From Chloroflexota bacterium (GTDB lineage: Bacteria; Chloroflexota; Limnocylindria; Limnocylindrales; Limnocylindraceae), in contig JBEDBF010000001.1 of the NCBI GenBank assembly GCA_041177405.1, positions 1 to 42,303 of the forward strand: a stretch of 42,303 nucleotides of DNA. Direction: 5' to 3'. Shown in pieces: positions 3,746-42,303 of this stretch. Numbering within the stretch: position 1 is the stretch's first letter; each line of letters opens with the position of its first letter. The notes beneath the pieces were generated by a model. It had not been told where the DNA came from. It saw nothing but the letters and a program-made list of their open reading frames with translations, and ran no database searches. The position numbers and the translations under genes are program-made.

Positions 3746-6520
3746 ATGGCAAAGGGTCCAGCTGGCAAGGGTCCAGTAGATAACGGCGCAGACGGGATCA
3801 GCCCGGGCGGCGTGAGCGTCACCAGCGTGAAGTCGATCCGAATCGAAGACGAGATGCGCACGAGTTACCTCGATTACGCCATGAGCGTGATCGTGGCTCG
3901 TGCCCTCCCAGACGTGCGTGACGGCCTCAAGCCAGTCCATCGCCGCATCCTCTACACCATGGGCGAGATGGGTCTCTCAGGGGGCTCGGCCTATCGGAAG
4001 TGCGCCGCGATCGTCGGTGAGGTCATGGGTAAGTACCACCCGCACGGCGACGGCGCCCTATACGACGCACTTGTCCGCCTGGCGCAAGACTTCTCCATGC
4101 GCCACCCGCTCGTTGATGGCCAAGGAAACTTCGGCTCCGTCGACGGCGACTCGGCCGCTGCGATGCGCTACACCGAAGCGCGCCTCACCGCGATCGCCGG
4201 CGAAATGCTCGCCGATATCGATCACGAGACTGTTGACTTCACACCAAACTATGACGGCACGCAGAAGGAGCCGAGCGTCCTCCCCTCGCGCATGCCAAAT
4301 CTGCTCGTCAACGGATCGGCAGGGATCGCCGTTGGCATGGCGACCAATATTCCGCCGCACAACCTTGGCGAGATCGCGGACGCCGCCATTGCACTCGTTG
4401 AGAATCCACAGCTCACCGCAGAAGAGTTGAGTGCGATCGTCCTCGCGCCAGACTTCCCAACTGGCGGCGTGCTCTACCGCTACGACCACATCAAGAATCC
4501 ACTCACCGGCAAGACCGAGCGCGTTGACGCGATTCGACAGATGTACGCACACGGTCGCGGGCGCGTCGTTGTAGAAGGGAAGACAAGCTTTGAAGAGGCG
4601 CGTGGCGACCGCACCGCCATCATCATTCACGAACTCCCGTATCAGGTGAACAAGGCGACACTCGTTGAGAAGATTGCCGACCTCGTCAAAGAGGGCCGCA
4701 TTGAGGGGATTTCCGATCTACGTGACGAGTCAGACCGCGACGGGATGCGCATCTACGTTGAGGTGAAGCGCGACGGCAATCCGCACAAGGTGCTCAACAA
4801 GCTCCTGAAGCTCACACCGCTTCGCGCCGCATTCAGCATGAACATGCTCGCGCTGGTCGATGGTCAGCCACAAACACTCTCGCTGAAGTCTGTACTGCAG
4901 CACCACATTGAACACCGCCGCGTCATCGTTCGTCGACGCACGGAGTTTGAACTGAAGAAGGCGCAGGAGCGCGCACACATCTTGGAAGGCTTGAAGATTG
5001 CGCTGGACAACCTTGACGCAGTCATCAAGACAATTCGTGCCGCCGCAGATGTGGACGTTGCGCGCGAACAGTTGATGACCAAATTCAAGCTGAGCGAACT
5101 GCAGGCGCAGGCAATCTTGGACATGCGCCTCGCCCGACTCGCCGCACTCGAGCGCAAGAAGATTGAAGACGAGTACCTAGAGGTTCTTGCGCTGATCAAG
5201 GAGCTTCAGGACATCCTTGCGAATCCGAAGCGTGTCTCCAAGATCATTGCTGCTGAGTACGCGAAGATGAAGGAGAAGTTCGGAGATACGCGACGCACTC
5301 GTATCGCACAGGACGCCACACGCGAGATGTCCGACGAGGATCTCATTGCGGACGAAGACGTGGTGATCACGGTTAGCGGTCGCGGCTACATCAAGCGCCA
5401 GCCGCTCACGGCGTACCGACAACAGCATCGCGGCGGCAAGGGCGTGCGCGGGATGACCACGCGTGAAGAGGATGCAGTGAAGTCACTCCAGGTTGCGAAC
5501 ACGCACGACTGGGCCTTCTTCTTCACAAACAAGGGTCGCTGCTTCAGCACCAAGGTGCATGAGATTCCAGACGCATCTCGACAGAACAAGGGAATCCCGA
5601 TCGTCAATCTGCCAGGTGTCCAGGTCGAATCTGGTGAAGTTCCGGTTGCAACGGTCATCCTGCAGAACTTCAACGCTGGTGGCTACCTCGCCTTCTCCAC
5701 CAAGAAGGGTGTGATCAAGAAGACGGCGCTCGAGCAGTTTGAGAAGGTTCGTTCGTCTGGAATCATCGCGATCACCCTTGATAAGGGCGATGAGCTTGCG
5801 CAGGTGATTCCAACCTCGGGCGAAGACGACATTGTGCTCGCCACGCGACAGGGTCGCATCTGCCGCTTCCATGAGAAGGAGGCGCGACCGATGGGGCGCT
5901 CCGCCGGCGGCGTTATCGGAATCCGCATCGCCCGACAGGGTGACCTTGTGGTGGCCGCGGCGGTGGTGGAGCCTGGAGCCGACCTCCTCGTTCTCACCGA
6001 GACCGGCTTCGGGAAGCGCGTCCCAGTTGGAGCGTTCAGCCGCAAGCACCGCGGCACCCAGGGTGTCCGTCTGATTCCACTTGAGGGTCGAAAGACGGGA
6101 CCGGTTGTGGCCGTGCGCCAGGTGAGTGAGGCCGACGAAGAGGTCATCTTGATCAGCGCTGAGGGCCAGGTGGTGCGCACGAAACTTGAGACCATCGCGA
6201 CTCGCAATGACGGCAGCTCCCAAGGCGTGCGTGTCATGACCCTTCGCGAAGGGGACAAGGTGGCGGGGATCGCCGCCTTCCGCACAGGGCTAGCAAAGCG
6301 CGACGCCGACGGCGAGAATGAGGGCGCCCCTGACGGGGAGGCCAGCCCCCCTCGAACGAAGGCAGCCAAGGCCGCGGCAACGAAGACCCCAGCGAAGGGG
6401 AAGGCGAAGCCAGCGGCTAAGGTGAAGGCGAACAGCGCGAAGGCGAGCGCAACAACAAAGACGAGCAAGGCGAACAAGGCGAACAAGACGGTCAAGACGA
6501 AACCTACGAAGCGGCGATAG
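3746..6520 (+). CDS. gyrA: DNA gyrase subunit A with a Lys/Ala-rich basic C-terminal tail
   Basis: [33 protein letters not shown], the [10 protein letters not shown] active-site Tyr region, and C-terminal beta-pinwheel repeats. I prefer ATG 3746 (preceded by AAAGGGGG at 3731-3738) over the track start TTG 3728. Confidence 0.95.
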
Positions 6521-6536
6521 GGATCGGAGGACGGCG

Positions 6537-7601
6537 ATGAGGGCAGATTCAATCGACGTCTACACGGGAAATGCAAACCCAGAGCTTGCGAGCAAGATTG
6601 CACGCTATCTCGGACGTGAGCTCGGCAAGGCGGAAGTGTTCGCCTTTGCCAACGAGAACATCTTCGTCAAGATCCTTGACAACGCGCGAGAGAAAGATGT
6701 CTTCATTGTCCAGCCAACGTCACGCCCAGTGAGCACCTCCATCATGGAGCTGCTGATCATGATCGATGCATTTAAGCGCGCATCTGCTGGACGCATCACT
6801 GCCGTCATCCCCTACTACGGATATGGACGCTCTGACAAGAAAGACCAGCCGCGTGTGCCAATCACGGCCCGACTCGTTGCCGACATGTTGCAAGTTGCTG
6901 GCGCAAACAGAATCCTCACCATGGACCTCCACCAGGGACAGCTGCAGGGATTCTTCAACGTCCCTGTCGATGAGCTCACCGCGGTGCACATGCTCTCCAA
7001 CTACATCCGACAGAAAGGGACCGAGAACCTTGCCGTTGTGACCGACCTTGGTTTCGCAAAGCGTGCGCGCACCTTTGCAGAACTTCTTGATGCACCGCTC
7101 GCGATCGTCGAGAAGCGACGTGAAGGGAACGACGACCACGCTGAGGTCCTCAATGTCATCGGCGATGTGAAGGGGAAGCGCGTCATCATTGTGGATGATG
7201 AGATCGACACTGCGGGAACGCTCACCGAGACGGTGCGCGCGATTGAGAAGGCGGGGGCGATCGAAGTGACCGCCTGTGCGACACACGGCGTCTTTTCCGG
7301 CCCCGCAATCGAGCGCATCGACGCATCGGCTGTGCGAGAGGTGATCGTCACCGACTCAATCCCAATGCCTGCTGGAGTGAGCAGCCCAAAGATCAAGCGT
7401 CTCTCTTCGGCGCCACTCTTCGGTGAAGCCATCAAGCGCATTCATCTTGGCGAGTCGGTGGGTGCGCTCTTTGGGAAAGAGGCCTCCATGGCGGAGGAGA
7501 TGGTCTTCTGGGATGGCGAACATGCTGGACTCCCATCAACATCGAACGGCAACGGTCGCGCGGCGATCGGCGCCGCTGGTGCGAAGCGCCGGGCGAAGTA
7601 G
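6537..7601 (+). CDS. prs: Ribose-phosphate pyrophosphokinase (PRPP synthetase), with about 40 extra C-terminal residues
   Basis: VFIVQPTS, ITAVIPYYGYGRSDKK, TMDLHQGQLQGFF, VIIVDDEIDTAGTL. Confidence 0.92.
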   Translation: MRADSIDVYTGNANPELASKIARYLGRELGKAEVFAFANENIFVKILDNAREKDVFIVQPTSRPVSTSIMELLIMIDAFKRASAGRITAVIPYYGYGRSDKKDQPRVPITARLVADMLQVAGANRILTMDLHQGQLQGFFNVPVDELTAVHMLSNYIRQKGTENLAVVTDLGFAKRARTFAELLDAPLAIVEKRREGNDDHAEVLNVIGDVKGKRVIIVDDEIDTAGTLTETVRAIEKAGAIEVTACATHGVFSGPAIERIDASAVREVIVTDSIPMPAGVSSPKIKRLSSAPLFGEAIKRIHLGESVGALFGKEASMAEEMVFWDGEHAGLPSTSNGNGRAAIGAAGAKRRAK

Positions 7602-7603
7602 AC

Positions 7604-7837
7604 ATGACGCTGAAGCTGCACCGTCCAGATGAGCGCGGCGTGATCACCGCTCACGAACCAGAGCGGCGCGCAGACTGGCGCGCCACACTTCGCAGTCCGC
7701 GGTGGAACGCGGCACCACTCAAGAATCCTGAGATGAATCCGACGAGCCGCCCCGCGAGCGTCGTCTATTGGCTCGTATTGGGCGCGATCACGTTTGGCAT
7801 TCTCATGCTGGGGTACGGCTCCGGCTTCTGGCGCTAA
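7604..7837 (+). CDS. Hypothetical small membrane protein (one C-terminal TM helix)
   Basis: A 77-codon ORF fills the prs-secA gap exactly. ATG lies 2 nt after the prs stop. Hydrophobic stretch VVYWLVLGAITFGILMLGYG. No family recognised. Confidence 0.4.
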   Translation: MTLKLHRPDERGVITAHEPERRADWRATLRSPRWNAAPLKNPEMNPTSRPASVVYWLVLGAITFGILMLGYGSGFWR

Positions 7838-32245: not shown

Positions 32246-32674
32246 TCAGCGCTTCTTACTGCCGCCGCGGCGATTCGGTCGCTTCAGAGTCGCTTCAACA
32301 CCGTCGCTCACCTGGCGTCGTGCCCGCAACATCTCCTCATGCGCCGCCTCAGCGGCAAGCTGCGGCGGGAAACGGTTAACGACCGTGTCGCGAAGGAGGT
32401 AGAGGCCAACGGCGGTAGTGATGATGGGGAAGAGGCCGTACCACTGGAATGCCGCGTAGACGAGGTTCAAGCCAAAGGTGCTCACGCCGATCCAGAGCAG
32501 ATACTCCCACTCGGTGCCGATCACTCCTCGCCCATGCGCGCCGCGCGTCGACCATGCGTAGGCGACGATGGTGAAGATGAAGAGGAGTAGGTTCACCACC
32601 CAGAACGGGGTGTAGAACGTGCCAAGCCGCGCATTCAGCGCGACGAAGAGATACTCCCAGGGCCACTGCGCCAT
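32246..32674 (-). CDS. Hypothetical membrane protein (about 4 TM helices, basic C-terminal tail)
   Basis: Hydrophobic segments FWVVNLLLFIFTIVAYAW, LLWIGVSTFGLNLVYAAF, GLFPIITTAVGLYLL. Tail KRPNRRGGSKKR. No family recognised. Confidence 0.6.
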   Translation of the reverse strand: MAQWPWEYLFVALNARLGTFYTPFWVVNLLLFIFTIVAYAWSTRGAHGRGVIGTEWEYLLWIGVSTFGLNLVYAAFQWYGLFPIITTAVGLYLLRDTVVNRFPPQLAAEAAHEEMLRARRQVSDGVEATLKRPNRRGGSKKR

Positions 32675-32747
32675 TCGGTTACCTCACTCGCAACTATTGA
32701 CCCGACAAGTGGTCGGCTCGTCAGGCGAGTATGCCATCATCGCCCTC

Positions 32748-34148
32748 ATGCGGGTCCTCCTCGTCGCCAGCCCAGCGCACCCAACGGTTGCACGGCTCAC
32801 GCCCACACTCGCCACCCTCGTCGCGCAAGGCTGCCGCATCGAGGCGCACCTCCCCCTCTCTGATGAGCTCACTCGTGAAGGGATCCCACACACAGGGCTC
32901 GACGACCCCGCGCTTGACGCTGCACTTCGCGGCCTCACCAGCGTCGATCTCCTTATTGCTCCGCTCGCGGCCGCCGCCGCCTTTGCCGGCGCCGCCGCCC
33001 TCGCCGCCACCGCACACGCCATCGGGAGAGGGGACGACGCACCACTTCTCCTGGTTGATGCGAACGACGCAGGGGATCTCGTTGGGTCGCTCGCCATGGC
33101 GCGCGACGGGGGGTCGGTCGGCGCGGCGGTTCGCGAACGACTGATGCAAAGTGCCGCCTTTGCGCTGGCCTCTGCACTCGCCCCGGTCGCTCACGGCGGC
33201 GACGAATTTCCTGAGCGACAACTCCTCCTCCTCGAACGAATGCGAACCTTTCAGCATGGCGAAAACCCACACCAGCGCGCTGCCGCATACCAGTACGCAT
33301 CACGAAACAGGGCCGGAGTGCTCGGCGCACGCCTTGTCCAGGGCAGTGAGCCAACACTGAACGACTTGTTGGACCTCGATGCTGGTGCGCGACTCGTTGC
33401 CGACCTGCCGATTCCAAGCGCCGCGCTCATCCGTCATACGGATCCAATCGGCGCGGCAACCGCTGAAACTCCGCTCGGAGCGCTGAAGCGCGCACTCGAG
33501 ACTGATCACACGGCAACATCAGGTGCAATCGTTGCGTTGAACACGCCAATCGATCGCGCAGTTGCAGTTGAGATTGCGAGCGGTAGCTACGAAGCGGCTG
33601 TCGCCCCTGGCGTTGCCGATGAGAGTGCCGCCTCTGCGCTTGCCGCGCGCCCAGAACTTCGCGTGCTGCTCTATGCACCAGAGCACCCACAAACCCCCGA
33701 ACTGATTGGGCTCGGCGACGCACTCTTAATGCAGACCCCAGACCACGGCGCCATTGAGCGCAGCGAGCTTCGTGTGGTGACGGAGCGCCGACCCACACTC
33801 GAAGAGCTCACCGATGCCCTCTTTGCCTGGCGAGTCGTACGCCATGTTCGCTCCAATGCAATTGTCGTGGCGCGAAACGCCAGCACGCTTGGCATCGGTG
33901 CCGCACAAGTGAATCGCCGCGTGGCAGTTGAGATTGCGTTGCAACGCGCGGGTGATCGTGCGCGCGGCGCGGTCATGGCGTCAGATGCGTACTTTCCATT
34001 CGCGGAAGGGATCGCCGCTGCCGCCGCCGCGGGCGTGACCGCAGTAGTGCAACCAGGCGGTTCGCGCCGGGATAACGCGGCGATTGAGATTGCAAATCGA
34101 AACGGGATGGCGATGCTGTTTACCGGGCGTCGCCACTACCGAAGGTAG
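32748..34148 (+). CDS. PurH-like protein: recognisable AICAR-transformylase-type C-terminal domain, degenerate MGS/IMP-cyclohydrolase-type N-terminal domain
   Basis: C-terminal matches to PurH: HGENPHQ, GIGAAQVNRR, ASDAYFPFAEG, VVQPGGSRRD, MLFTGRRHYRR. The N-terminal 150 aa lack the SVSDK, STGGT and DGRVKTLHP motifs. ATG 32748 is chosen because the track start 32619 overlaps the divergent gene. Confidence 0.75.
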   Translation: MRVLLVASPAHPTVARLTPTLATLVAQGCRIEAHLPLSDELTREGIPHTGLDDPALDAALRGLTSVDLLIAPLAAAAAFAGAAALAATAHAIGRGDDAPLLLVDANDAGDLVGSLAMARDGGSVGAAVRERLMQSAAFALASALAPVAHGGDEFPERQLLLLERMRTFQHGENPHQRAAAYQYASRNRAGVLGARLVQGSEPTLNDLLDLDAGARLVADLPIPSAALIRHTDPIGAATAETPLGALKRALETDHTATSGAIVALNTPIDRAVAVEIASGSYEAAVAPGVADESAASALAARPELRVLLYAPEHPQTPELIGLGDALLMQTPDHGAIERSELRVVTERRPTLEELTDALFAWRVVRHVRSNAIVVARNASTLGIGAAQVNRRVAVEIALQRAGDRARGAVMASDAYFPFAEGIAAAAAAGVTAVVQPGGSRRDNAAIEIANRNGMAMLFTGRRHYRR

Positions 34149-34153
34149 CGACA

Positions 34154-35332
34154 ATGGAAGAATCGCTCGCCGCGCGTATCGTTGCGGAGATCCGCGAGCG
34201 AGGACCAATCAGTTTTGCGCGATTCATGGAGCGCGCACTCACTGAGCCAGGTATCGGCTACTACGTTGGCCCGCATGCACGCGCAGGGCGAGAGGGTGAC
34301 TTCATTACCGCACCAGAGATGCACGGGATTCTCGGTTCAGCACTTGCACGGCTGTTTACCCAAACATGGGAGCGGCTCGATCGACCAACACCGTTTCGCT
34401 ATACCGAGTACGGCGCCGGATCTGGCACACTCGTCTGCGCCATCATCGATCAGCTCATCAGAGATACATCACCACTCCTTGAGGCGCTTGAGATCCAACT
34501 GATTGAAGTCAATGAACACCGCGTAGAAGAGTTGAAAGCTGCGGTGAGCGCACGTGCGCTCCGTCAGCCGCTGAACATCGTGCACGTTGATGCACCCCCG
34601 GTGGCGGGAGTTGTTGTGGCGAACGAATATCTCGACGCACTCCCGTTTCACATCTATGTGGGACGAGCAGCGACCGCCTGCGGCGTTGCAGAGCGTCGTG
34701 TTGGAGTCAACGAGCGCGGCGTACTTGATTGGGTGGAAGTGCCGCTGGACGAATCCGAAGCTGAGCGAGTGCGTCAGCGGTTTGGGGCACCACTCGCTGA
34801 AGGGCAACGCGCAGAGGCCTGCTTTGCTGCAGACAGATGGCCGTCCGAACTGGCGCAACGAATCAGTCATGGGCTTGTGGTGGTGATTGACTACGGCCGC
34901 GAAGGGGTTGAACTGCGTGACGCTGCGAGCCGCGCGGCCGGGACGGCACTTGCCTATCAGGGGCATCGGGCCACGGACGACCTCTTGGGGGACCCAGGGG
35001 GGCGCGACCTGACCGCCCACGTTGACTTGACCGCCCTGCGAGTCGCCGCCACCGCGGCGGGGCTCACCCCGATCGCCTCCACCAGCCAGGCGGCACTCCT
35101 CGCAGGGGCGGGCCTTGATGACGAAATCGAGCGGATCCGCCGAGGGCCAGAGGCGACCCTTGAGGGGGCGATCGCCCTTCGCGCGGCGCTTGCACGGCTG
35201 ATGAACCCCCGGAGCATGGGTGGCTTTGCCGTTGAGCTCTTCGCCCTCGGCTCGGCTGAGCACATTTCACGCCTCTCAGATGCGAGAAATCCGCTCCCTG
35301 GAGCGGCGGCTCCGATCCGCCCCCTCGTCTAG
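34154..35332 (+). CDS. Class I SAM-dependent methyltransferase of the DUF185 / MidA / NDUFAF7 family
   Basis: ISFARFMERALTEPGIGYY, GDFITAPEMHGILGSALA, EYGAGSGTL, ANEYLDALP, DLTAHVDLTAL match the family pattern. Confidence 0.8.
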   Translation: MEESLAARIVAEIRERGPISFARFMERALTEPGIGYYVGPHARAGREGDFITAPEMHGILGSALARLFTQTWERLDRPTPFRYTEYGAGSGTLVCAIIDQLIRDTSPLLEALEIQLIEVNEHRVEELKAAVSARALRQPLNIVHVDAPPVAGVVVANEYLDALPFHIYVGRAATACGVAERRVGVNERGVLDWVEVPLDESEAERVRQRFGAPLAEGQRAEACFAADRWPSELAQRISHGLVVVIDYGREGVELRDAASRAAGTALAYQGHRATDDLLGDPGGRDLTAHVDLTALRVAATAAGLTPIASTSQAALLAGAGLDDEIERIRRGPEATLEGAIALRAALARLMNPRSMGGFAVELFALGSAEHISRLSDARNPLPGAAAPIRPLV

Positions 35333-35404: not shown

Positions 35405-35761
35405 ATGAACGGACTCTGGTACGTCCTCGGCTTCGCCGGCGCGGGTGTCTCCTTCGTCTTTTTGACGATCGGGATCGCCTGGCTGATCTCCCACCGTACG
35501 CGCGGAAGCCGAGGGAAGCAGGTGCCATACGAGTCGGGCATCGACACGTACGGCGACACCCACGGCCGCTTCGGCCTCTCCTTCTATCTCTACGCACTTC
35601 TCTTCGTTGCGTTCGATGTTGAGATCGTCTTTATTTACATCTGGGCGCTCAACTTCCAAACGCTCCTCATCGAAGGCCTCGTCTCCATGGCGGTCTTTAT
35701 CGGCGTCTTGCTGATCGGGCTCGCATATGCGTGGCGAAAAGGGGTGCTCGCATGGCGATGA
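35405..35761 (+). CDS. nuoA: NADH-quinone oxidoreductase subunit A
   Basis: 3-TM protein with YESGID ... [19 protein letters not shown]. Confidence 0.9.
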
Positions 35762-36429
35762 CACGCGATCCAAAGAAGGCGTTGCAGGCTCCGATCGTCA
35801 CACCGAACACGCTCTGGACCACCGACGACCCGCGTGCATACGGTGGTCAGCCGCTCGCCGAACATCCGAACCTTGAGCTCGCGCGCTATGACGCCACTGG
35901 CGAAGGTCGCGTGGATGATGCGCGTTGGAGCGGAGCGCTTGGCGCGATCCCAACAAAGGCAGACATTGTGCTCGACCTAATCCGAGCAAACAGCCTCTGG
36001 CCACTTCTCTCCGGACTCGCATGTTGCGCGATCGAGATGATGTCAACCGCGACGCCAAAGAACGATATTGATCGCTGGGGGATGTTCCCCTTCCGCGCGT
36101 CGCCGCGACAGGCAGACGTGTTGATCGTCGCGGGAACACTGACAACAAAAATGGCGGAACCGCTCATTCGACTATGGGAGCAGATGCCAGAACCGAAGTG
36201 GGTTGTTGCAATGGGAGACTGCACCTGTTCAGGCGGTCGCTATAAGCGCAGCTACTCCGTGGTGCAAGGGATTGACCGCGTGATGCCCGTTGATGTCTAC
36301 ATCCCAGGATGTCCGCCACGACCAGAGGGCCTGATCTACGGAATGATGAAACTGCAGCAGCTGATTAAGGATCGTCGTGGACATTGGCCGGAGCGCGCAA
36401 TCGGCCCAACCGTTCCGGACGGAATCTAA
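35752..36429 (+). CDS. nuoB: NADH-quinone oxidoreductase subunit B (all four N2 cluster Cys present) with a long N-terminal extension
   Basis: [45 protein letters not shown]. The start is ATG 35752 or 35758, overlapping the nuoA stop. Confidence 0.9.
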
Positions 36430-36980
36430 TGGATCGCGCGCTCGCCACTGCACTCCAGGAGCGCTTCGGCAACACGCTTCTCGCCCCCGTTCGTCAACGA
36501 TTTGACGAGACGGAGATTCGCGTCAGCATTGCTGATGCAATCCCAACGCTGCGCGCGCTACATGATGAACCTGCATTCGCATATGAAATGCTGATTGACC
36601 TTTGTGGGGTAGATACCGGTGAAGAGATGCAGGTCGTGTATCACCTTTCGTCGTCTCAAAGTGGTGACTGGCTTCGCGTGATCGTCCCCGGTATTGACCG
36701 AAGTGCGCCGCGCGTGAACTCGCTCGTCTCACTCTGGCCAGGCGCCGAATGGATGGAGCGCGAGGCCTACGACATGTTCGGCATCATCTTCGAAGGGAAT
36801 CGCGACCTTCGTCGCATCTACATGCCAGATGATTATGTGAGCCACCCGCTCCGAAAAGATTTCTATCTTGCAGACGACGCGTCGCGGTCACCGGCCGCTG
36901 GCGTTCGCAACATGGAGCGCGTGGGAACGCCCGTTGATGCCACCCGCAGCACGGCACTACGCAAGAGTCCAGGGGCATAA
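36429..36980 (+). CDS. nuoC: NADH-quinone oxidoreductase subunit C
   Basis: LIDLCGVD, SLWPGAEWMEREAYDMFGIIFEGN, DLRRI, HPLRKDF. ATG overlaps the nuoB TAA (TAATG). Confidence 0.9.
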   Translation: MDRALATALQERFGNTLLAPVRQRFDETEIRVSIADAIPTLRALHDEPAFAYEMLIDLCGVDTGEEMQVVYHLSSSQSGDWLRVIVPGIDRSAPRVNSLVSLWPGAEWMEREAYDMFGIIFEGNRDLRRIYMPDDYVSHPLRKDFYLADDASRSPAAGVRNMERVGTPVDATRSTALRKSPGA

Positions 36981-36982
36981 GC

Positions 36983-38197
36983 GTGACCACACCCCTGACG
37001 AAACCATCACTTGACGATCCAAGGATTGCGATCCCCGCTGCCTCCGAGTGGTACGAGCCCGCACCCACGGCGCAGACGGAGCGACAGGCGGAGTTCCTGA
37101 ACCTTCGCGACGGCGAGATGTTCATCAATATGGGGCCGCAACACCCGTCCACACACGGGGTGCTTCGCATCGTCGTCAAGGTGAACGGCGAGCAGGTTGT
37201 TGACCTTGACCCCGTGCTCGGATACCTCCACCGCGGCGTAGAGAAGCTCTGCGAGAACGCCGACTACCACCAGGCGATCTGCTACACCGACCCACTCGAA
37301 TACGTGGCCTCGCTCTTCTGCGAAGCCGCACCCGTGGCCGCCTTCGAGAAGCTGATGGATGTCGACGTCCCGCGCCGCGCGCAGTACATCCGCGTCCTCA
37401 CCATGGAGCTGAATCGCATCGCCAGTCACACCCTCTTCCAGGGGTGGATGGCGCTCGATCTTGGTGGGATCACGCCGATCCTCTGGTCGTTCATTGAACG
37501 CGATGAGATCGTGGACATGCTCGCGGCTCTCACGGGGCAGAAACTGCTCTACAACTACTACCGCATTGGTGGCGTGAACGGCGACCTCAATCACGAATTC
37601 ATGAGCCGACTCGGCAACTGGATGAGCCGCGCCGCCGCGCAGATCGATTCAAACCTTGGGTTGATGAACGAGAACGAAATCTTCGTTCGACGCACGCGCG
37701 GTCTCGGCACGCTTGATGCGGCTACTGCGCTGCGCATGGGTGTCACTGGACCAAACCTGCGCGCCACCGGCGTGCCGTTTGATCTCCGCCGCGATCACCC
37801 ATATCTGGTGTATCCAGAGCTTGAGTTCAACGTGCCAACACGCCAAGAGGGTGACTCGCTTGCGCGCTACATGGTTCGGATTGACGAGATTCGCGAGTCC
37901 ATTCGCATCATTGATCAGGTGCTGCACGAAATGCCAGATGGTCCAGTGATGGCGAAACTCCCGCGCCTGATCCGACCACGACCAGGCCGCGCATTCGGCG
38001 CGGTAGAAGGGCCGCGTGGCGCGTACGGCGTGTACGCAATCTCTGATGGCACCGATCAACCGTTCCGGATGCGCATTCACGACCCATCGTTCGTTCACTT
38101 GCAACTGGTGGGTCCGCTCACGCGCGGCAATTTGATTGCAGACACCATGGCGGTGATGGCAAGCCTTGATCCTGTCATGGGTGGGGTGGACAAGTGA
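36983..38197 (+). CDS. nuoD: NADH-quinone oxidoreductase subunit D
   Basis: NMGPQHPSTHGVLR, LGYLHRGVEKL, ELNRIASH, EGPRGAYGVY, HDPSF, DPVMGGVDK. Confidence 0.93.
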   Translation: MTTPLTKPSLDDPRIAIPAASEWYEPAPTAQTERQAEFLNLRDGEMFINMGPQHPSTHGVLRIVVKVNGEQVVDLDPVLGYLHRGVEKLCENADYHQAICYTDPLEYVASLFCEAAPVAAFEKLMDVDVPRRAQYIRVLTMELNRIASHTLFQGWMALDLGGITPILWSFIERDEIVDMLAALTGQKLLYNYYRIGGVNGDLNHEFMSRLGNWMSRAAAQIDSNLGLMNENEIFVRRTRGLGTLDAATALRMGVTGPNLRATGVPFDLRRDHPYLVYPELEFNVPTRQEGDSLARYMVRIDEIRESIRIIDQVLHEMPDGPVMAKLPRLIRPRPGRAFGAVEGPRGAYGVYAISDGTDQPFRMRIHDPSFVHLQLVGPLTRGNLIADTMAVMASLDPVMGGVDK

Positions 38198-39531
38198 GCG
38201 GCGCACAGATGGCATGGTCACGAATGACGCCAGGCGGACGCGCACTCGCCGTGCTGCTGCCACTTCTCTCCGTTGGGGGCGCGGCGATCACCGCCCTGCT
38301 CGTTGTAGCGGGACCGTTCATTGGCGCAACCATTGGGGCAAACCTGCCAATCGTGCGCTTCCTCGCCGCGTCGGTGATCACCTTCTTGATCACCGTCCCT
38401 GTTGCATTCCTTTTGATTTACATGGAGATGAAGATCATTGCGTTGATGAATCTGCGCATCGGCCCAGATCGCATCGGTCCCGGCGGTGCCGTCATGAGTG
38501 TGGTGCACGGGCTCAAGGTGCTGATGAAGGAGGACTACACGCCGCCGAGCGTTGATGTTCCTGTCTTCACGCTCGCACCCGTCGTTGTCTATCTGGCGAG
38601 CTTCATGACGATCATGGTCATTCCGTTTGCGCCAGACCTCACGAGTATCGGACTCGAGTTCGGCCTCCTCTACTTCTTCGCTATCGGCGGACTCGGCGTA
38701 GTGGGCTTGATGATGGCGGGCTGGTCCTCGTTCAACAAGTATTCGCTTTTGGGCGGCATTCGAGCCGCAGCGCAGGCGATCAGCTATGAGATCCCCCTGA
38801 CACTCTCCGTCGTAGGAATCATCATCTTGACCGGCACACTCTCGCTCCCAAAGATTGTGGAGGCGCAGAGCGGTTCCCTGCTTGACTGGTTCATCTTCCG
38901 TCAGCCACTTGCGGCGATCATCTTCTTCATTGCAATCACCGCAGAGGCGAACCGCACGCCGTTTGATAACACCGAAGCCGATCAGGAGATCGTTGCCGGA
39001 TTCGCAACGGAGTACTCCGGCATGCGCTTCGGCTTCTTCTTCTTTGCGGAGTACGTCAACGTCTTCATCGTCTCAGCACTCTTCTCCGCCGTCTTCCTTG
39101 GCGGATCCAATGCACCGCTTGTTCTCCCCTTCAACCCTGAGATCAATGTGGACCTGAGCGGGCTCGGCCTCCTCCTCCCGATCGCGGCGGGGATCGCTCC
39201 GCTGCTTGGGACGTTGGCGATCGGCCTCCCCATCTACGCGATTAGCGCGCGCATCAAGGCCTGGCAGGCACTCCTCGCCGGCTTCCTCATCTTCGGCGCG
39301 CTTTCGACAGCGGCCATCGGCTTCTGGGCCTGGGCGATGCTTCCACCCGTCGCGGACCTTGTCTGGTTCCTGCTGAAGACGTTCACCCTGATCTTCATCT
39401 TCGTCTGGATGCGCGCAACGTTGCCGCGCGCGCGCATCGACCAGCTGATGGGCTTCGCCTGGAAGTGGCTCCTCCCCGCCTCACTGCTCAACCTATTTGT
39501 CACGGCTGCCGCCGTGTTGCTGACGGCATAA
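38194..39531 (+). CDS. nuoH: NADH-quinone oxidoreductase subunit H, about 100 aa longer than usual
   Basis: EMKIIALMNLRIGPDRIGPGG, LKVLMKEDYTP, AEANRTPFD, EADQEIVAGFATEYSGMRFGFFFFAEY, WMRATLPRARIDQLM. GTG 38194 overlaps the nuoD stop. Confidence 0.9.
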   Translation: MSGAQMAWSRMTPGGRALAVLLPLLSVGGAAITALLVVAGPFIGATIGANLPIVRFLAASVITFLITVPVAFLLIYMEMKIIALMNLRIGPDRIGPGGAVMSVVHGLKVLMKEDYTPPSVDVPVFTLAPVVVYLASFMTIMVIPFAPDLTSIGLEFGLLYFFAIGGLGVVGLMMAGWSSFNKYSLLGGIRAAAQAISYEIPLTLSVVGIIILTGTLSLPKIVEAQSGSLLDWFIFRQPLAAIIFFIAITAEANRTPFDNTEADQEIVAGFATEYSGMRFGFFFFAEYVNVFIVSALFSAVFLGGSNAPLVLPFNPEINVDLSGLGLLLPIAAGIAPLLGTLAIGLPIYAISARIKAWQALLAGFLIFGALSTAAIGFWAWAMLPPVADLVWFLLKTFTLIFIFVWMRATLPRARIDQLMGFAWKWLLPASLLNLFVTAAAVLLTA

Positions 39532-39541
39532 GGAGGGTCTG

Positions 39542-40363
39542 ATGGCACGAATCCCAGGCTCAGGCATCGTCCGCGGAATGGCCCTGACGCTCACGCGCTT
39601 CTTCCAGCCGAAGAAGACGGTGATGTACCCCGAAGTGAAGCCAGACATTCCGCCGCGCAACCGTGGTCGCTTGGAACTGGTGACCGACGAGCGTGGCACG
39701 CTGAAGTGCGAAACCTGTTTCCAGTGCGCGCAGGCGTGCCCAATTGAGTGCATTGACATGGGCGGAACAGATACCAAGGGAAGGTACGCCGTCCACTGGG
39801 GGCCGGCGGAGCAGTACGCCGAGCGCCGCGAAGAGTCGGCGATGCGTCGCTCCGGACGAACCGTCTCCGACGCTGCGGCAGCACAAGAGAGCAGTGTTGA
39901 CCTTCGACCCGTTGAAGCGGCGTTGGAACGCGTTGACTACGACCCGCATCACATGTTGCAGATCCTTGAGTCAGTACAGCGCGCGTACGGATATCTGCCG
40001 GTTGATGCATTGAAGCGCATCAGTCGCGCCACTGGCGCCTGGTACGCCATGGTCTATGGCACCGCAACCTTCTATAAACACCTCACGTTTGAGCCGGGAC
40101 GCAATCGCACGATCGCGGTCTGCCGTTGTGCAAACTGCTTGGTTGCCGGCGCAGGGCGCGTGATCAACACGCTCTCGTTCGAATTTGGAACAGAGTTCGG
40201 ACAGGCGATCCCGTGGAGCAACCTGCGGCTCGAAGCCCTCCCAACACACCTTCCTGACGCCCCATCGCCGCTCGTGGTGATTGACGGCGAACCACAGCGC
40301 GAGCTCTCAAGTCGCAATGCCGAGTCGTGGGCCGCCGCGCTTGCGGGGAGGTACGCCGCGTGA
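39542..40363 (+). CDS. nuoI: Fusion protein: N-terminal half of NuoI (single 4Fe-4S motif) joined to a NuoE-like thioredoxin-fold domain with an incomplete 2Fe-2S ligand set
   Basis: NuoI part: KKTVMYPE, RNRGRLEL, CETCFQCAQACPIEC (39707-39751). NuoE-like part: LQILESVQRAYGYLP, VYGTATFY, IAVCRCANC (40121-40138). SD AGGAGGG precedes ATG 39542. Confidence 0.8.
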   Translation: MARIPGSGIVRGMALTLTRFFQPKKTVMYPEVKPDIPPRNRGRLELVTDERGTLKCETCFQCAQACPIECIDMGGTDTKGRYAVHWGPAEQYAERREESAMRRSGRTVSDAAAAQESSVDLRPVEAALERVDYDPHHMLQILESVQRAYGYLPVDALKRISRATGAWYAMVYGTATFYKHLTFEPGRNRTIAVCRCANCLVAGAGRVINTLSFEFGTEFGQAIPWSNLRLEALPTHLPDAPSPLVVIDGEPQRELSSRNAESWAAALAGRYAA

Positions 40364-41622
40364 AGCAACTGAGCGCACCAAAGGGATGGTCACAGATCCT
40401 CATGACGCCACCGGCAACGCCGTGGAGCGCGCTGCGCGCTGCGCTCGCCGCTGGTGGCGCGGCAACCGCGCAGACACTCATTGATGCCGGCCTGCGCGGA
40501 CGCGGCGGTGGGGGTTTCTTGACCGGTGAGAAGTGGCGTGCAGCTGCGCAGAGCGACGCGTCGCCGAAATACGCGGTGGCAAACGCATACGAGTCAGACC
40601 CAGCCGTCTTCACGAACCGTCTCCTTCTTGAAAAGAATGCACTCGGAGTCATTGAGGGCCTCGCGATCGCCGCACTCAGTGTTGGCGCGCGTGAAGCGAT
40701 GATTGGCGTGCGCGCGGAGTACAGCGACGCAATCCGTTCGCTTGAAGTGACCATCACCACCGCAGAGCGCGAAGGCGTTCTCGGGGCCAACGTGCTCGGA
40801 AGCGGTCGCGAGCTCACCGTGCGCGTCATCCCACTTCAAGGCTCAAGCATGATCGGTGAAGAGACGGTGCTGCTCAAGGCGCTTGCAGGAAAACGCGGTC
40901 AGCCAGAGCAGACGCCGCCGTATCCATCGGAAGTTGGCTATCTCGGCAAGCCGACCGTGGTGAACAACGTGGCAACACTCGCCGCCGTCTCTTGGATCCT
41001 TGCCAACGGCGCCGCTGCATTCAAGCAGATTGGCGACCCAGCGCAGCCTGGAACCATGCTCGTTCAGGTGAGCGGCTCGATCACTAACTCCGGCGTCCTC
41101 GAAGTTCCGACAGGAACCCCACTCGCGGAGATCCTCGCAGTGGCGGGAGGCCCCGCACGCGGAGCCACGATCAAGGCGCTTCTTGTTGGCGGCCCATCGG
41201 GCGGATTTGTTCCTGCGCAGCTGTTGGCAAGTACGCCGTATAGCGGCGCCGGACTCGCCGCGGTTGGCGCGCACATTGGTTCGGGCGCGCTGCTTGCCCT
41301 CGACGGGAGCGCATCAATTCCTGAGCTCGCCGCCATGTTGACGCGCTGGTGTGCCGACGAAGCCTGCGGAAAAACAATTCCATGCCGCATCGGCACCCGT
41401 CGCCTTGCTGAGATTGGGCAACGCTTTGTCGACGGTCTCGCTGGCCCGCAAGACGGCGAGCGACTCCAGGCGCTCGCGGCAGATGTTGCAGATAGCGCGC
41501 TCTGCGCGCATGAGCGGCTCACGCCAAGCCCACTCCTGACGGGGATGCGATACTTCAAACACGAGTTTTATCCGGCCAACGTCGCGCAGCCAAGCGGCGC
41601 AGTAGCAGGACGGAGTACGTAG
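40360..41622 (+). CDS. NuoF (51-kDa subunit)-like protein with divergent cofactor motifs
   Basis: GLRGRGGGGFLTGEKW, IGEETVLLKALAGKRGQP, PPYPSEVGYLGKPTVVNNVAT, EACGKTIPCRIG. GTG 40360 forms a GTGA overlap with the upstream stop. Confidence 0.8.
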   Translation: MKQLSAPKGWSQILMTPPATPWSALRAALAAGGAATAQTLIDAGLRGRGGGGFLTGEKWRAAAQSDASPKYAVANAYESDPAVFTNRLLLEKNALGVIEGLAIAALSVGAREAMIGVRAEYSDAIRSLEVTITTAEREGVLGANVLGSGRELTVRVIPLQGSSMIGEETVLLKALAGKRGQPEQTPPYPSEVGYLGKPTVVNNVATLAAVSWILANGAAAFKQIGDPAQPGTMLVQVSGSITNSGVLEVPTGTPLAEILAVAGGPARGATIKALLVGGPSGGFVPAQLLASTPYSGAGLAAVGAHIGSGALLALDGSASIPELAAMLTRWCADEACGKTIPCRIGTRRLAEIGQRFVDGLAGPQDGERLQALAADVADSALCAHERLTPSPLLTGMRYFKHEFYPANVAQPSGAVAGRST

Positions 41623-42303
41623 ATGGCAGGCCTCATGGAGCGACCAACGAGTGGTGTGACACCAGTTGATGCCACCGCGGTGCAGACCACCTCAGAGAGC
41701 CAAGCGGTTGAGCAGATGCTCTCCACGCGCAGCCCACAACGCCCGCAGCGCACCCCAACCTTCTATGTAGAGATTGACGGGAGGCAGCTCGAGGCGTTTG
41801 AGGGACAGACAATCCTCGAAGTCTGCCGCGCAAATGGCATTGAAGTCCCAACGCTCTGCTACGACCCGAAACTTCCTGGATTCGGCGCATGCCGCATGTG
41901 TGTGGTCGACGTTGACGGGTGTGACTCACCGCAGATCAGCTGTTCGGCAAAGGCGGAACCCGCAGCGGTCATTGCCACACAGACCGATCGGCTGCGTGAG
42001 ATTCGTCGCACCAACCTGGAGTTGATCTTTAGCGACCACAACGCGTACTGTCTGCCGCCGTGCCAAAACAAGTGCCCGAGCCACATCGACATTCCAGGTT
42101 TCTTGAAGGCGAACGCCGAGTCGCAGTTCCGCGAGTCGGCGCGCATCTTCAAGCGCACCATCCCGTTCCCAAGCATCCTCGGTCGCGTCTGCCCAGCACC
42201 TTGTGAAGACCACTGCCGTCGTGACGAAGTTGACGAAGCGATCGCGATCCGCGACAGCCACCGCTACGCAGGCGACCAGGTGCTCAAGTCAATGTGGGAC
42301 GAG
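41623..42303 (+). CDS. Partial CDS (3-prime end outside the window): NuoG-type N-terminal 2Fe-2S domain fused to a GltD (glutamate synthase small subunit)-like Fe-S/NAD(P)H oxidoreductase domain
   Basis: Not in the ORF track because it has no stop. I translated it by hand from ATG 41623 (TAGATG with the nuoF-like stop): FYVEIDGRQLEAFEGQTILEVC ... LCYDPKLPGFGACRMCVVDVDGCDSPQISC (C-x10-C-x2-C-x13-C), then CLPPCQNKCPSHIDIPGFLKANAESQFRESARIFKRTIPFPSILGRVCPAPCEDHCRR ... IAIRDSHRYAGD. The second part parallels the GltD N-terminal Fe-S region. The frame stays open to the last base. Confidence 0.8.
   Translation, partial: MAGLMERPTSGVTPVDATAVQTTSESQAVEQMLSTRSPQRPQRTPTFYVEIDGRQLEAFEGQTILEVCRANGIEVPTLCYDPKLPGFGACRMCVVDVDGCDSPQISCSAKAEPAAVIATQTDRLREIRRTNLELIFSDHNAYCLPPCQNKCPSHIDIPGFLKANAESQFRESARIFKRTIPFPSILGRVCPAPCEDHCRRDEVDEAIAIRDSHRYAGDQVLKSMWDE

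Follow-up and report, generated by a model that had tools for sequence, protein, structure and literature searches.

The stretch of DNA analyzed here (the window, 42,303 nucleotides) is the entire contig C1 of a 1.07-Mb metagenome-assembled genome (MAG; 62.5% GC, 88% complete) of the freshwater Candidatus Limnocylindrus (Chloroflexota, Limnocylindrales), and it ends inside an operon for respiratory complex I. Over window 42205-42303, contig C1 shares 99 nucleotides with contig C37 in reverse complement, and the joined operon reads nuoA-B-C-D-H-[NuoI(N)·NuoE']-nuoF'-[2Fe-2S·GltD-like·2x4Fe-4S·NuoI(C)]-nuoJ-K-L-M-N. It is the sole complex I of the genome and encodes NuoA, B, C, D, H, I, J, K, L, M and N co-linearly, with NuoI present as two complementary halves: positions 1-65 of the profile TIGR01971 match residues 12-77 of the first fusion protein, NuoI(N)-E', whereas positions 71-117 are found in the second, referred to here as the GltD fusion. 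Between the two lies nuoF', whose product F' is the subject of this study. The split-nuoI layout recurs in all 80 fetched loci and also around the distant relatives P0122, P0136, P0130, P0181, P0231 and P0252. The usual NuoEFG input module is apparently replaced by a trimmed module of the NfnABC/Stn type (Bfu family) placed inside the split nuoI, a context missing from an earlier sequence-only reading of the window that explains the changes in F' described below.

The open reading frame of nuoF' runs from a GTG at 40360 to a TAG at 41622 on the forward strand and encodes 420 residues. Its start overlaps the upstream stop codon as GTGA, a Shine-Dalgarno sequence (GGGGAGG, 40345-40351) lies 8 nucleotides 5' of the GTG, the ATG of the next gene directly abuts the TAG, and the relatives share the same start residue. 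The NuoF-like fold that had been proposed from the letters alone is borne out: F' scores above the gathering cut-offs of Complex1_51K (120.7 bits), SLBB (32.5) and NADH_4Fe-4S (65.9), and an AlphaFold2 (AF2) model built on 25 relatives has a mean predicted local distance difference test score (pLDDT) of 89. These three domains and the matching fold place the protein in the NuoF/BfuB superfamily, with NfnB (PDB 9bov_B, template modeling (TM) score 0.89), HydB and StnB (8oh5_B) as best structural matches and NuoF after these; NfnB/StnB is also the best sequence match (E about 1e-85; TM range 0.86-0.89). Against TIGR01959 (nuoF_fam), F' reaches 306 bits where the equivalog cut-off is 558.65, and it stays below the cut-offs of the other NuoF equivalogs as well. 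A word-indexed search returned thousands of homologues, the best 120 of which form a tight family, and an HMMER scan of 1.84 billion representative sequences gave 461-368 bits for this family, followed by a sharp drop to proteins of the HydB/HoxF/NuoF type at ≤300 bits and ≤43% identity. F' is without the N- and C-terminal Bfu extensions, its 420 residues aligning to residues 146-512 of the 584-residue StnB. BfuB as defined by Schut et al. 2022 combines a ferredoxin-type domain (IPR017896) with the NuoF core, commonly with an N-terminal 2Fe-2S domain or Zn site (PMC9304861); F' contains no Fer4 domain and falls outside this definition, which includes the C-terminal 4Fe-4S domain.

Together with its neighbors, nuoF' forms the set of three adjacent genes that characterizes NfnABC/StnABC modules, namely a NuoE-like, a NuoF-like and a 2Fe-2S/GltD-like/ferredoxin protein. 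The NuoE-like domain E' matches NfnC and HydC best and lacks the second Cys pair of its 2Fe-2S site, reading LPTHLP where canonical NuoE has CxxxC. The best PDB match of the GltD fusion is NfnA from Caldicellulosiruptor (9bov_A, E = 1e-165), fusion residues 49-779 being colinear with 9bov_A 6-700, and StnC (8oh5_C) and Thermococcus NfnA align colinearly as well. StnC ends in a dead-end formate-dehydrogenase-like domain, whereas the GltD fusion runs into the second NuoI half. Every cofactor motif of the fusion is kept in about 73-78 of 79 relatives: the 2Fe-2S ligands, HxxxCxxxCxxxCP, the Lys ligand in IFKRTIPFP, RVCPAPCE, GxGxxG, VTLVYRR and three CxxCxxCxxxC(P). The YRR after the second Rossmann strand of the GltD domain aligns with NfnA; in GltD/NfnB-type enzymes this motif binds the 2'-phosphate of NADPH. 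The fusion is a single open reading frame in 67 of 69 relatives; this MAG carries it as two (661 and about 177 residues) owing to a 41-nucleotide deletion relative to the 95%-identical L038, located at about 43,595-43,600 of the joined C1-C37 sequence, beyond the window. The new stop is followed by a GTG in frame that has an AAGGA box, so that the split could be tolerated; alternatively, it could be an assembly error. A second GltD-like flavoprotein fused to ferredoxin-type 4Fe-4S domains is encoded on contig C24:9299-10945 (+) as an open frame of about 626 residues and is conserved in three other Limnocylindrus genomes.

To describe the substitutions in F', alignment columns of 81 clade members from 80 genome loci were compared with those of 138-144 outgroup homologues, all sequences being MAG-derived; residue numbers are those of F' unless Aquifex numbering is named. 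HMMER alignments to three solved homologues (HoxF/StnB, NfnB and HydB chains) return exactly the register that the sequence-only reading had set by eye, ruling out a misregistered alignment. Eighty columns are near-invariant in the outgroups; at 58 of them, 90% or more of the clade shows the outgroup residue, and at ten others the majority of the clade has lost it: G82A, Y116A, A170V, N202 (H/Q), E205 (A/Q/V), F330 (aromatic swaps), S335A, C339, L384H and G385E. Among these, S335A, Y116A, A170V, L384H and G385E had escaped the sequence-only reading. The positions of the motifs and of the surrounding genes are listed in Table 1.

Table 1. Features of the complex I locus and its surroundings; positions refer to the window unless a contig is named.
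Feature	Position	Strand	Description
PurH-like protein	32619..34148	+	509 residues
MidA/NDUFAF7-type methyltransferase	34154..35332	+	Pfam Methyltransf_28, E = 5e-44
nuoA, nuoB, nuoC, nuoD, nuoH	35405..39531	+	upstream part of the operon; nuoJ-K-L-M-N on C37
nuoB	35731..36429	+	
nuoH	38194..39531	+	445 residues
NuoI(N)-E'	39542..40363	+	NuoI N-half (first CxxCxxCxxxCP) fused to NuoE/BfuC-like thioredoxin-fold domain; profile matches
nuoF'	40360..41622	+	NuoF/BfuB-like subunit: Rossmann-like FMN domain, SLBB, four-helix N3 domain; Pfam, HMMER, AF2
Glycine-rich loop GLRGRGGGGFLTGEKW	40489..40536	+	residues 44-59; largely canonical, G47/G49/G50/K58/W59 kept in 98-100% of the clade
NAYESDPA	40582..40605	+	residues 75-82; NADE(G/S)(D/E)PG expected; D77Y, G82A (HMMER, alignment)
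LQGSSMIGEETVL	40834..40872	+	residues 159-171; GAGA(Y/F)(V/I)CGEETAL expected, GAGAFVCGEETAL in solved homologues; HMMER register
NNVATL	40963..40980	+	residues 202-207; NNVETL expected; E205A
N3/B1 motif CGKTIPC	41365..41385	+	residues 336-342; second Cys is Thr; canonical CGKCxxCR, here CGKTIPCR
C382-A-H384-E385	41503..41514	+	fourth N3 Cys followed by His/Glu; canonical C-G-L-G
GltD fusion, start	41623..42303	+	[2Fe-2S NuoG-N]/GltD-like FAD-NAD(P)H/2x[4Fe-4S]/NuoI-C; continues on C37
pntB	C102:1255-2634	-	this genome, beyond the window

The segment CNADEGDPG of the solved homologues aligns with ANAYESDPA of F'. The sequence-only reading had taken this stretch as NADESEPG changed to NAYESDPA, of which D77Y and G82A are true departures, whereas Asp at residue 80 is usual in Bfu-type relatives (89/144 outgroups). 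Tyr77 is found in 81/81 clade members (outgroups: Asp in 113/144, Glu in 11/144), and the Glu78 position is Gly in 34 of the 81. The corresponding Asp94 of Aquifex NuoF presumably holds the ribityl chain of the flavin mononucleotide (FMN). The Aquifex segment NADESEPG spans N92-G99, and its E95-S96-E97 triad is in water-bridged contact with the nicotinamide (PMC6560083; PMC11677225). The changes proposed from 40834 (GAGAFVCGEETAL to LQGSSMIGEETVL) and at NNVET (to NNVAT) stand in the HMMER alignments: GEET is kept in all 81 clade members, Y163S and P54L are confined to the genus Limnocylindrus, with soil relatives keeping Tyr163, and residue 205 is A39/Q32/V8/L2 in the clade and never Glu, which 128/144 outgroups carry.

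The loss of the second N3 cysteine, with three of four Cys left, likewise proved correct. Residue 339 is T71/S9/A1 in the clade (Cys in 0/81) and Cys in 137/144 outgroups, so that F' does not carry the four-Cys ligand set of N3/B1 (CxxCxxC...C); the remaining three include C382, and the flanking ADEACGKTIPCRIG is invariant in relatives. H384 and E385 after this last Cys are present in 81/81 members; in Aquifex NuoF, the glycine that comes just behind the fourth Cys (G394) helps to bind the NADH phosphate (PMC6560083). Taken over the whole FMN/NADH site, F' keeps the Gly loop (GRGG), K58, N75, E78-S79-D80, GEET, N203, T206 and the GSG loop, and is changed at D77Y, G82A, Y163S, C165I, A170V and E205A and in the loop after the fourth Cys, which is A-H-E and not G-L-G. 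The predicted nucleotide-binding frame is thus preserved, and the residues expected around the reaction center and the cluster are replaced.

Whether F' belongs to a distinct NuoF-like clade, a check that the sequence-only reading had suggested, was addressed with a fast approximate tree (FastTree LG+gamma, midpoint-rooted; 40 clade representatives and 138 outgroups). In it, all F' proteins attached to complex I group together as one monophyletic, nested series (supports 0.91-0.99). The basal P0252/P0187 have the canonical CNADEGDPG, four Cys and L-G; P0130/P0181/P0231 have Tyr77 and four Cys; P0136 has Met77, C-A-C-C and Glu385; P0122 has Ile77, four Cys, His384 and Gly385; and Limnocylindrales have Tyr77, C-T-C-C, His384 and Glu385. 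Asp77 is absent from all attached F' but the basal branch, indicating that its loss came after attachment to complex I. Cys339 was lost twice, each time with Gly385 changing to Glu, while the intervening lineage keeps both Cys and Gly and Glu385 occurs only where Cys339 is lost. These two coupled events (n=2) support a ligand swap to three Cys and one Glu. As the lost Cys is accompanied by a conserved Glu, the cluster site looks remodeled and not lost, and the cluster of F' is most likely religated as a [4Fe-4S] held by three Cys and Glu385, a 3Fe-4S form also being possible; this enzyme family has documented examples of cluster ligands other than Cys (Glu, Lys). The site is a candidate for a natural Cys-to-Glu ligand swap on N3. 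For a distant member of the family, a metagenome contig (L108, ERZ27247322 k141_221460) encodes at 6001-7824 a 607-residue fusion of NuoI(N), a Cys-free NuoE-like domain and a fully canonical NuoF (CNADEGDPG, four N3 Cys), directly after nuoH and before the GltD fusion; this triple fusion is likely an early stage of the same architecture.

Selection on nuoF' is clearly purifying. Pairwise ratios of nonsynonymous to synonymous substitution rates (dN/dS) against 16 congeners are 0.06-0.19 with a median of 0.125, two to seven times the medians of other operon genes (GltD-like gene 0.052, nuoD 0.042, nuoB 0.041, Fd-NuoI(C) part 0.018); dS is near saturation in the more distant pairs, and the three closest pairs (dS about 0.4) rank the genes identically. 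Within F', the N3 domain has the lowest dN/dS (0.04-0.09) and the FMN domain higher values (0.13-0.25). A shift of constraint is also seen at 45-60% identity, where the FMN domain is better conserved than the N3 domain in canonical homologues (0.553 > 0.454), whereas the order is reversed in the clade (0.578 < 0.604).

One Limnocylindrus sublineage (L042 = G030, L109 = G008 and P0055), together with the related P0053, has a destroyed pocket: the Gly loop, which reads AQLHCHRDGGASVASSW or EGAARHQPTARVTVEGW, N75, E168 and N202/N203 are gone, the loop being lost in this sublineage only. The operon is intact there, and the N3 domain (ADEACGKTIPCRIG..., SALC-x-HE) is untouched. The dN/dS of these F' is about 0.10, with the extra substitutions concentrated in the FMN domain (dN 0.36 versus about 0.20 in comparable pairs) and the N3 domain unchanged at about 0.11. 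The pocket-dead genomes, one of which is 92% complete, contain no other Complex1_51K gene, and no second, canonical NuoF was found in the genome studied here or in 30 other genomes of the genus, whereas soil relatives do have paralogues. As the Pfam family NDH2_C is too insensitive (it missed the E. coli control), NDH-2 was judged from the full listing of Pyr_redox_2 proteins, four per genome, which gave no candidate in this genome, in G006 or in the pocket-dead genomes; the four are dihydrolipoamide dehydrogenase (Lpd), thioredoxin reductase (TrxB), the complex I fusion and the second GltD/ferredoxin fusion. For pocket-dead cells, the GltD-like domain is the only predicted dinucleotide site serving the respiratory chain, and F' is presumably kept for a role other than that of its pocket. 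PntB, a subunit of the proton-translocating transhydrogenase, is encoded in 59/61 sampled Limnocylindrales genomes, including 39/39 high-quality ones and the pocket-dead ones, compared with 4/14 control genomes. This distribution fits a supply of NADPH from NADH; it is circumstantial and no proof.

From the observed sequence states, conservation, operon layout, homology and selection we infer an electron path, cofactor content and donor specificity as follows. StnABC oxidizes NADPH at the flavin adenine dinucleotide (FAD) of the GltD-like domain of StnC, from where electrons pass via the StnC clusters to the cluster and FMN of StnB, NAD+ being reduced, and ferredoxin reduction takes place at StnB's C-terminal domain (PMC10482914). 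The Limnocylindrus complex would likewise receive a hydride from NAD(P)H, probably NADPH, at the FAD of its GltD-like domain, and electrons would move over two [4Fe-4S] clusters to the ferredoxin-domain clusters, on to N6a/N6b, which the two reunited NuoI halves would form, and then via N2 in NuoB to quinone. F' would lie off this main path and branch to the side past the 2Fe-2S domain. What was once the bifurcating center, composed of FMN, the F' cluster and the E' cluster, would be dismantled, as the missing Bfu terminal domains, the lost ligands of the E' cluster, the religated F' cluster and the replaced residues of the hydride-transfer center (D77Y, G82A, E205A, L384H and G385E, plus Y163S in this genome) may indicate. 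With the ferredoxin domain absent and the ligands of clusters C1 and B1 altered, the sequence argues against NADPH/NAD+/ferredoxin bifurcation at an FMN/B1/C1 center. F' would then mainly bridge E', tethered to NuoI(N), and the GltD fusion, tethered to NuoI(C), perhaps with an Fe-S cluster on the side branch.

We therefore lean, with modest confidence, towards electron entry at the GltD-like flavin, F' being retained as a structural bridge on a side branch with a remodeled cluster. The sequence-only reading had left the choice between a non-catalytic scaffold and an altered cofactor or substrate specificity; the evidence favors the scaffold, and altered specificity is a serious rival for this genome. 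A scaffold is favored because F' is not on the shortest route that leads electrons from the GltD-like FAD domain, which is intact, to the split NuoI, because constraint within F' is strongest on the N3 domain and comparatively relaxed on the FMN domain, and because the pocket-dead sublineage keeps F' under purifying selection without another NuoF or NDH-2. Several points weigh against it. The canonical FMN/NADH contacts, including the aromatic clamp F53/Y188, are 95-100% conserved here and in most of the clade, and the conserved pocket of this genome may still bind a flavin or nucleotide, although the enzyme would not depend on any such binding. Since pocket residues decay fast once released and yet stay conserved to this degree elsewhere, their state in this genome suggests a ligand that is still bound. 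About 10% of otherwise canonical homologues are also without Asp at position 77, and D77Y alone is therefore no proof of FMN loss. If F' is inactive, NADH has to enter via PntAB, which costs energy, unless the GltD-like site accepts NADH too; that this site is probably specific for NADPH is read from the conserved YRR motif. A more far-reaching version, in which the complex I of Limnocylindria is an NADPH:menaquinone oxidoreductase, F' is a catalytically silent relic of the bifurcating core that serves as a structural bridge with a cluster of three Cys and one Glu, and NADH enters only as NADPH made by the universally conserved PntAB, is a tentative proposal that we would at present rather doubt than assert.

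It is conceivable, though on balance we think it less likely than a bridge, that F' is a working flavoprotein with FMN and a retuned NADH oxidation, so that the complex takes electrons to quinone both from NADH at F' and from NADPH at the GltD FAD, with bifurcation lost. The conserved pocket residues fit this, as do the nicotinamide-contact triad E78-S79-D80 present here, Tyr163 in the soil subclade and the fully canonical site that the basal P0252 has within this operon layout; the joint change of Cys339 and Gly385 has the look of tuning and not of loss, and direct NADH entry would be physiologically convenient for a genus without NDH-2. However, the pocket-dead lineages manage on the same set of genes, the FMN domain is under weaker constraint than in canonical enzymes, the Glu78 position is often Gly and Glu205 is never kept, His384/Glu385 occupy the very loop that contacts the NADH phosphate in Aquifex, and the partner cluster in E' has lost ligands. 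Conserved binding loops next to replaced catalytic-center residues are also what one would expect if the pocket bound NAD(P)(H) or flavin without turnover, as a redox or nucleotide sensor that gates or regulates entry at the GltD domain, comparable with the regulation of canonical complex I by N1a and NAD+ binding, and for NfnABC and Stn it is documented that nucleotides drive conformational changes of the BfuB/BfuC core (PMC11829005; PMC10482914). We consider such a sensor improbable: the pocket is dispensable in one sublineage, and sequence alone cannot tell a sensor from a bridge or a working flavoprotein. That F' is a decaying remnant, a pseudogene in progress, or an artefact of assembly or alignment is refuted by conservation and dN/dS and hardly deserves any credence, even though nuoF' is the fastest-evolving peripheral-arm gene of the operon and the next gene carries the 41-nucleotide deletion in this MAG. 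The frame is open, with a good ribosome-binding site and translational coupling, the low dN/dS speaks for function, the altered states are common to 81/81 orthologues from many independent assemblies, the AF2 model has a pLDDT of 89, and the register is set by the HMMER alignments.

Compared with known systems, F' resembles NfnB/StnB (PDB 9bov, 9bp5, 8oh5, 9n5u; PMC10482914, PMC11829005, PMC12018979) in its three-domain core and gene order, all three neighbors matching Nfn subunits best. It differs in lacking the N-terminal 2Fe-2S/thioredoxin-like domain and the C-terminal 2x[4Fe-4S] domain that is the ferredoxin site, in the flavin-site Asp replaced by Tyr, in one B1 ligand replaced by Thr with a Glu gained nearby, and in the lost ligands of the partner cluster C1. 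Unlike soluble NfnABC/StnABC, the module is covalently tied to complex I via the two NuoI halves. With NuoF/Nqo1/NDUFV1 of the 14-subunit complex I it shares the fold, the Pfam domains, the nuo operon, the Gly-rich loop, GEET, NNV-T and three of the four N3 Cys; nuoF' follows nuoH and nuoI(N), however, instead of standing between nuoE and nuoG, and its product is probably not the electron entry point. The predicted Nuo-Bfu complex I of Geobacter, Nitrospina, Kuenenia and others (PMC9304861; PMC3578206) also has a Bfu-type module in place of NuoEFG, but keeps the BfuB ferredoxin domains and extra clusters, has no GltD-like domain and an unsplit NuoI; Nitrospina NuoF2 is reported to be without the FMN-binding pattern (Luecker et al. 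2013, PMC3578206). Because a ferredoxin-type domain was a requirement for BfuB in the Bfu survey (PMC9304861), the Limnocylindrales clade would have escaped it. In Mbx-like clusters (Degli Esposti 2015, PMC4758237), a complex I-like membrane module is likewise coupled directly to a GltD-type NAD(P)H flavoprotein, but there the flavoprotein replaces NuoI, NuoE/NuoF-like subunits are absent and NADP+ reduction has been proposed (PMC4758237). We found no published description of this architecture, of this NuoF variant or of the complex I of Limnocylindria, the nearest being PMC9304861, PMC3578206 and PMC4758237.

Annotation pipelines label F' as 'NADH-quinone oxidoreductase subunit F (NADH-binding)', which may mislead. 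If electron entry has moved from the FMN of NuoF to a GltD-type FAD, metabolic models would be wrong on NADH versus NADPH and on the energy yield per electron pair, and complex I would be able to take up an entire transhydrogenase module of foreign origin through the splitting of a core subunit. Were NADPH the only donor, with conversion by PntAB, respiration would be wired in a way that is not known of any cultured organism. The clade offers a natural series from canonical over remodeled to destroyed pockets that could reveal non-catalytic roles of the FMN pocket, of N3 and of the NuoE cluster. Candidatus Limnocylindrus (SL56 lineage) belongs to the abundant bacterioplankton of fresh waters and has widespread relatives in soil, and the complex I described here is the only one that they have.

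The genes around nuoF' show further peculiarities. The gene for a MidA/NDUFAF7-type methyltransferase lies just 5' of nuoA and occupies the same place in two relatives, one from fresh water and one from soil (L016, L015); NDUFAF7 in eukaryotes methylates the NuoD homologue during complex I assembly. NuoH is long, its Pfam NADHdh match covering residues 61-438 against a profile of 298 positions, and NuoB has an N-terminal extension of ~95 residues ahead of its Oxidored_q6 domain. The PurH-like protein encoded upstream of the methyltransferase matches AICARFT_IMPCHas only, from profile position 54 onward and from residue 188, its N-terminal part having no Pfam hit.

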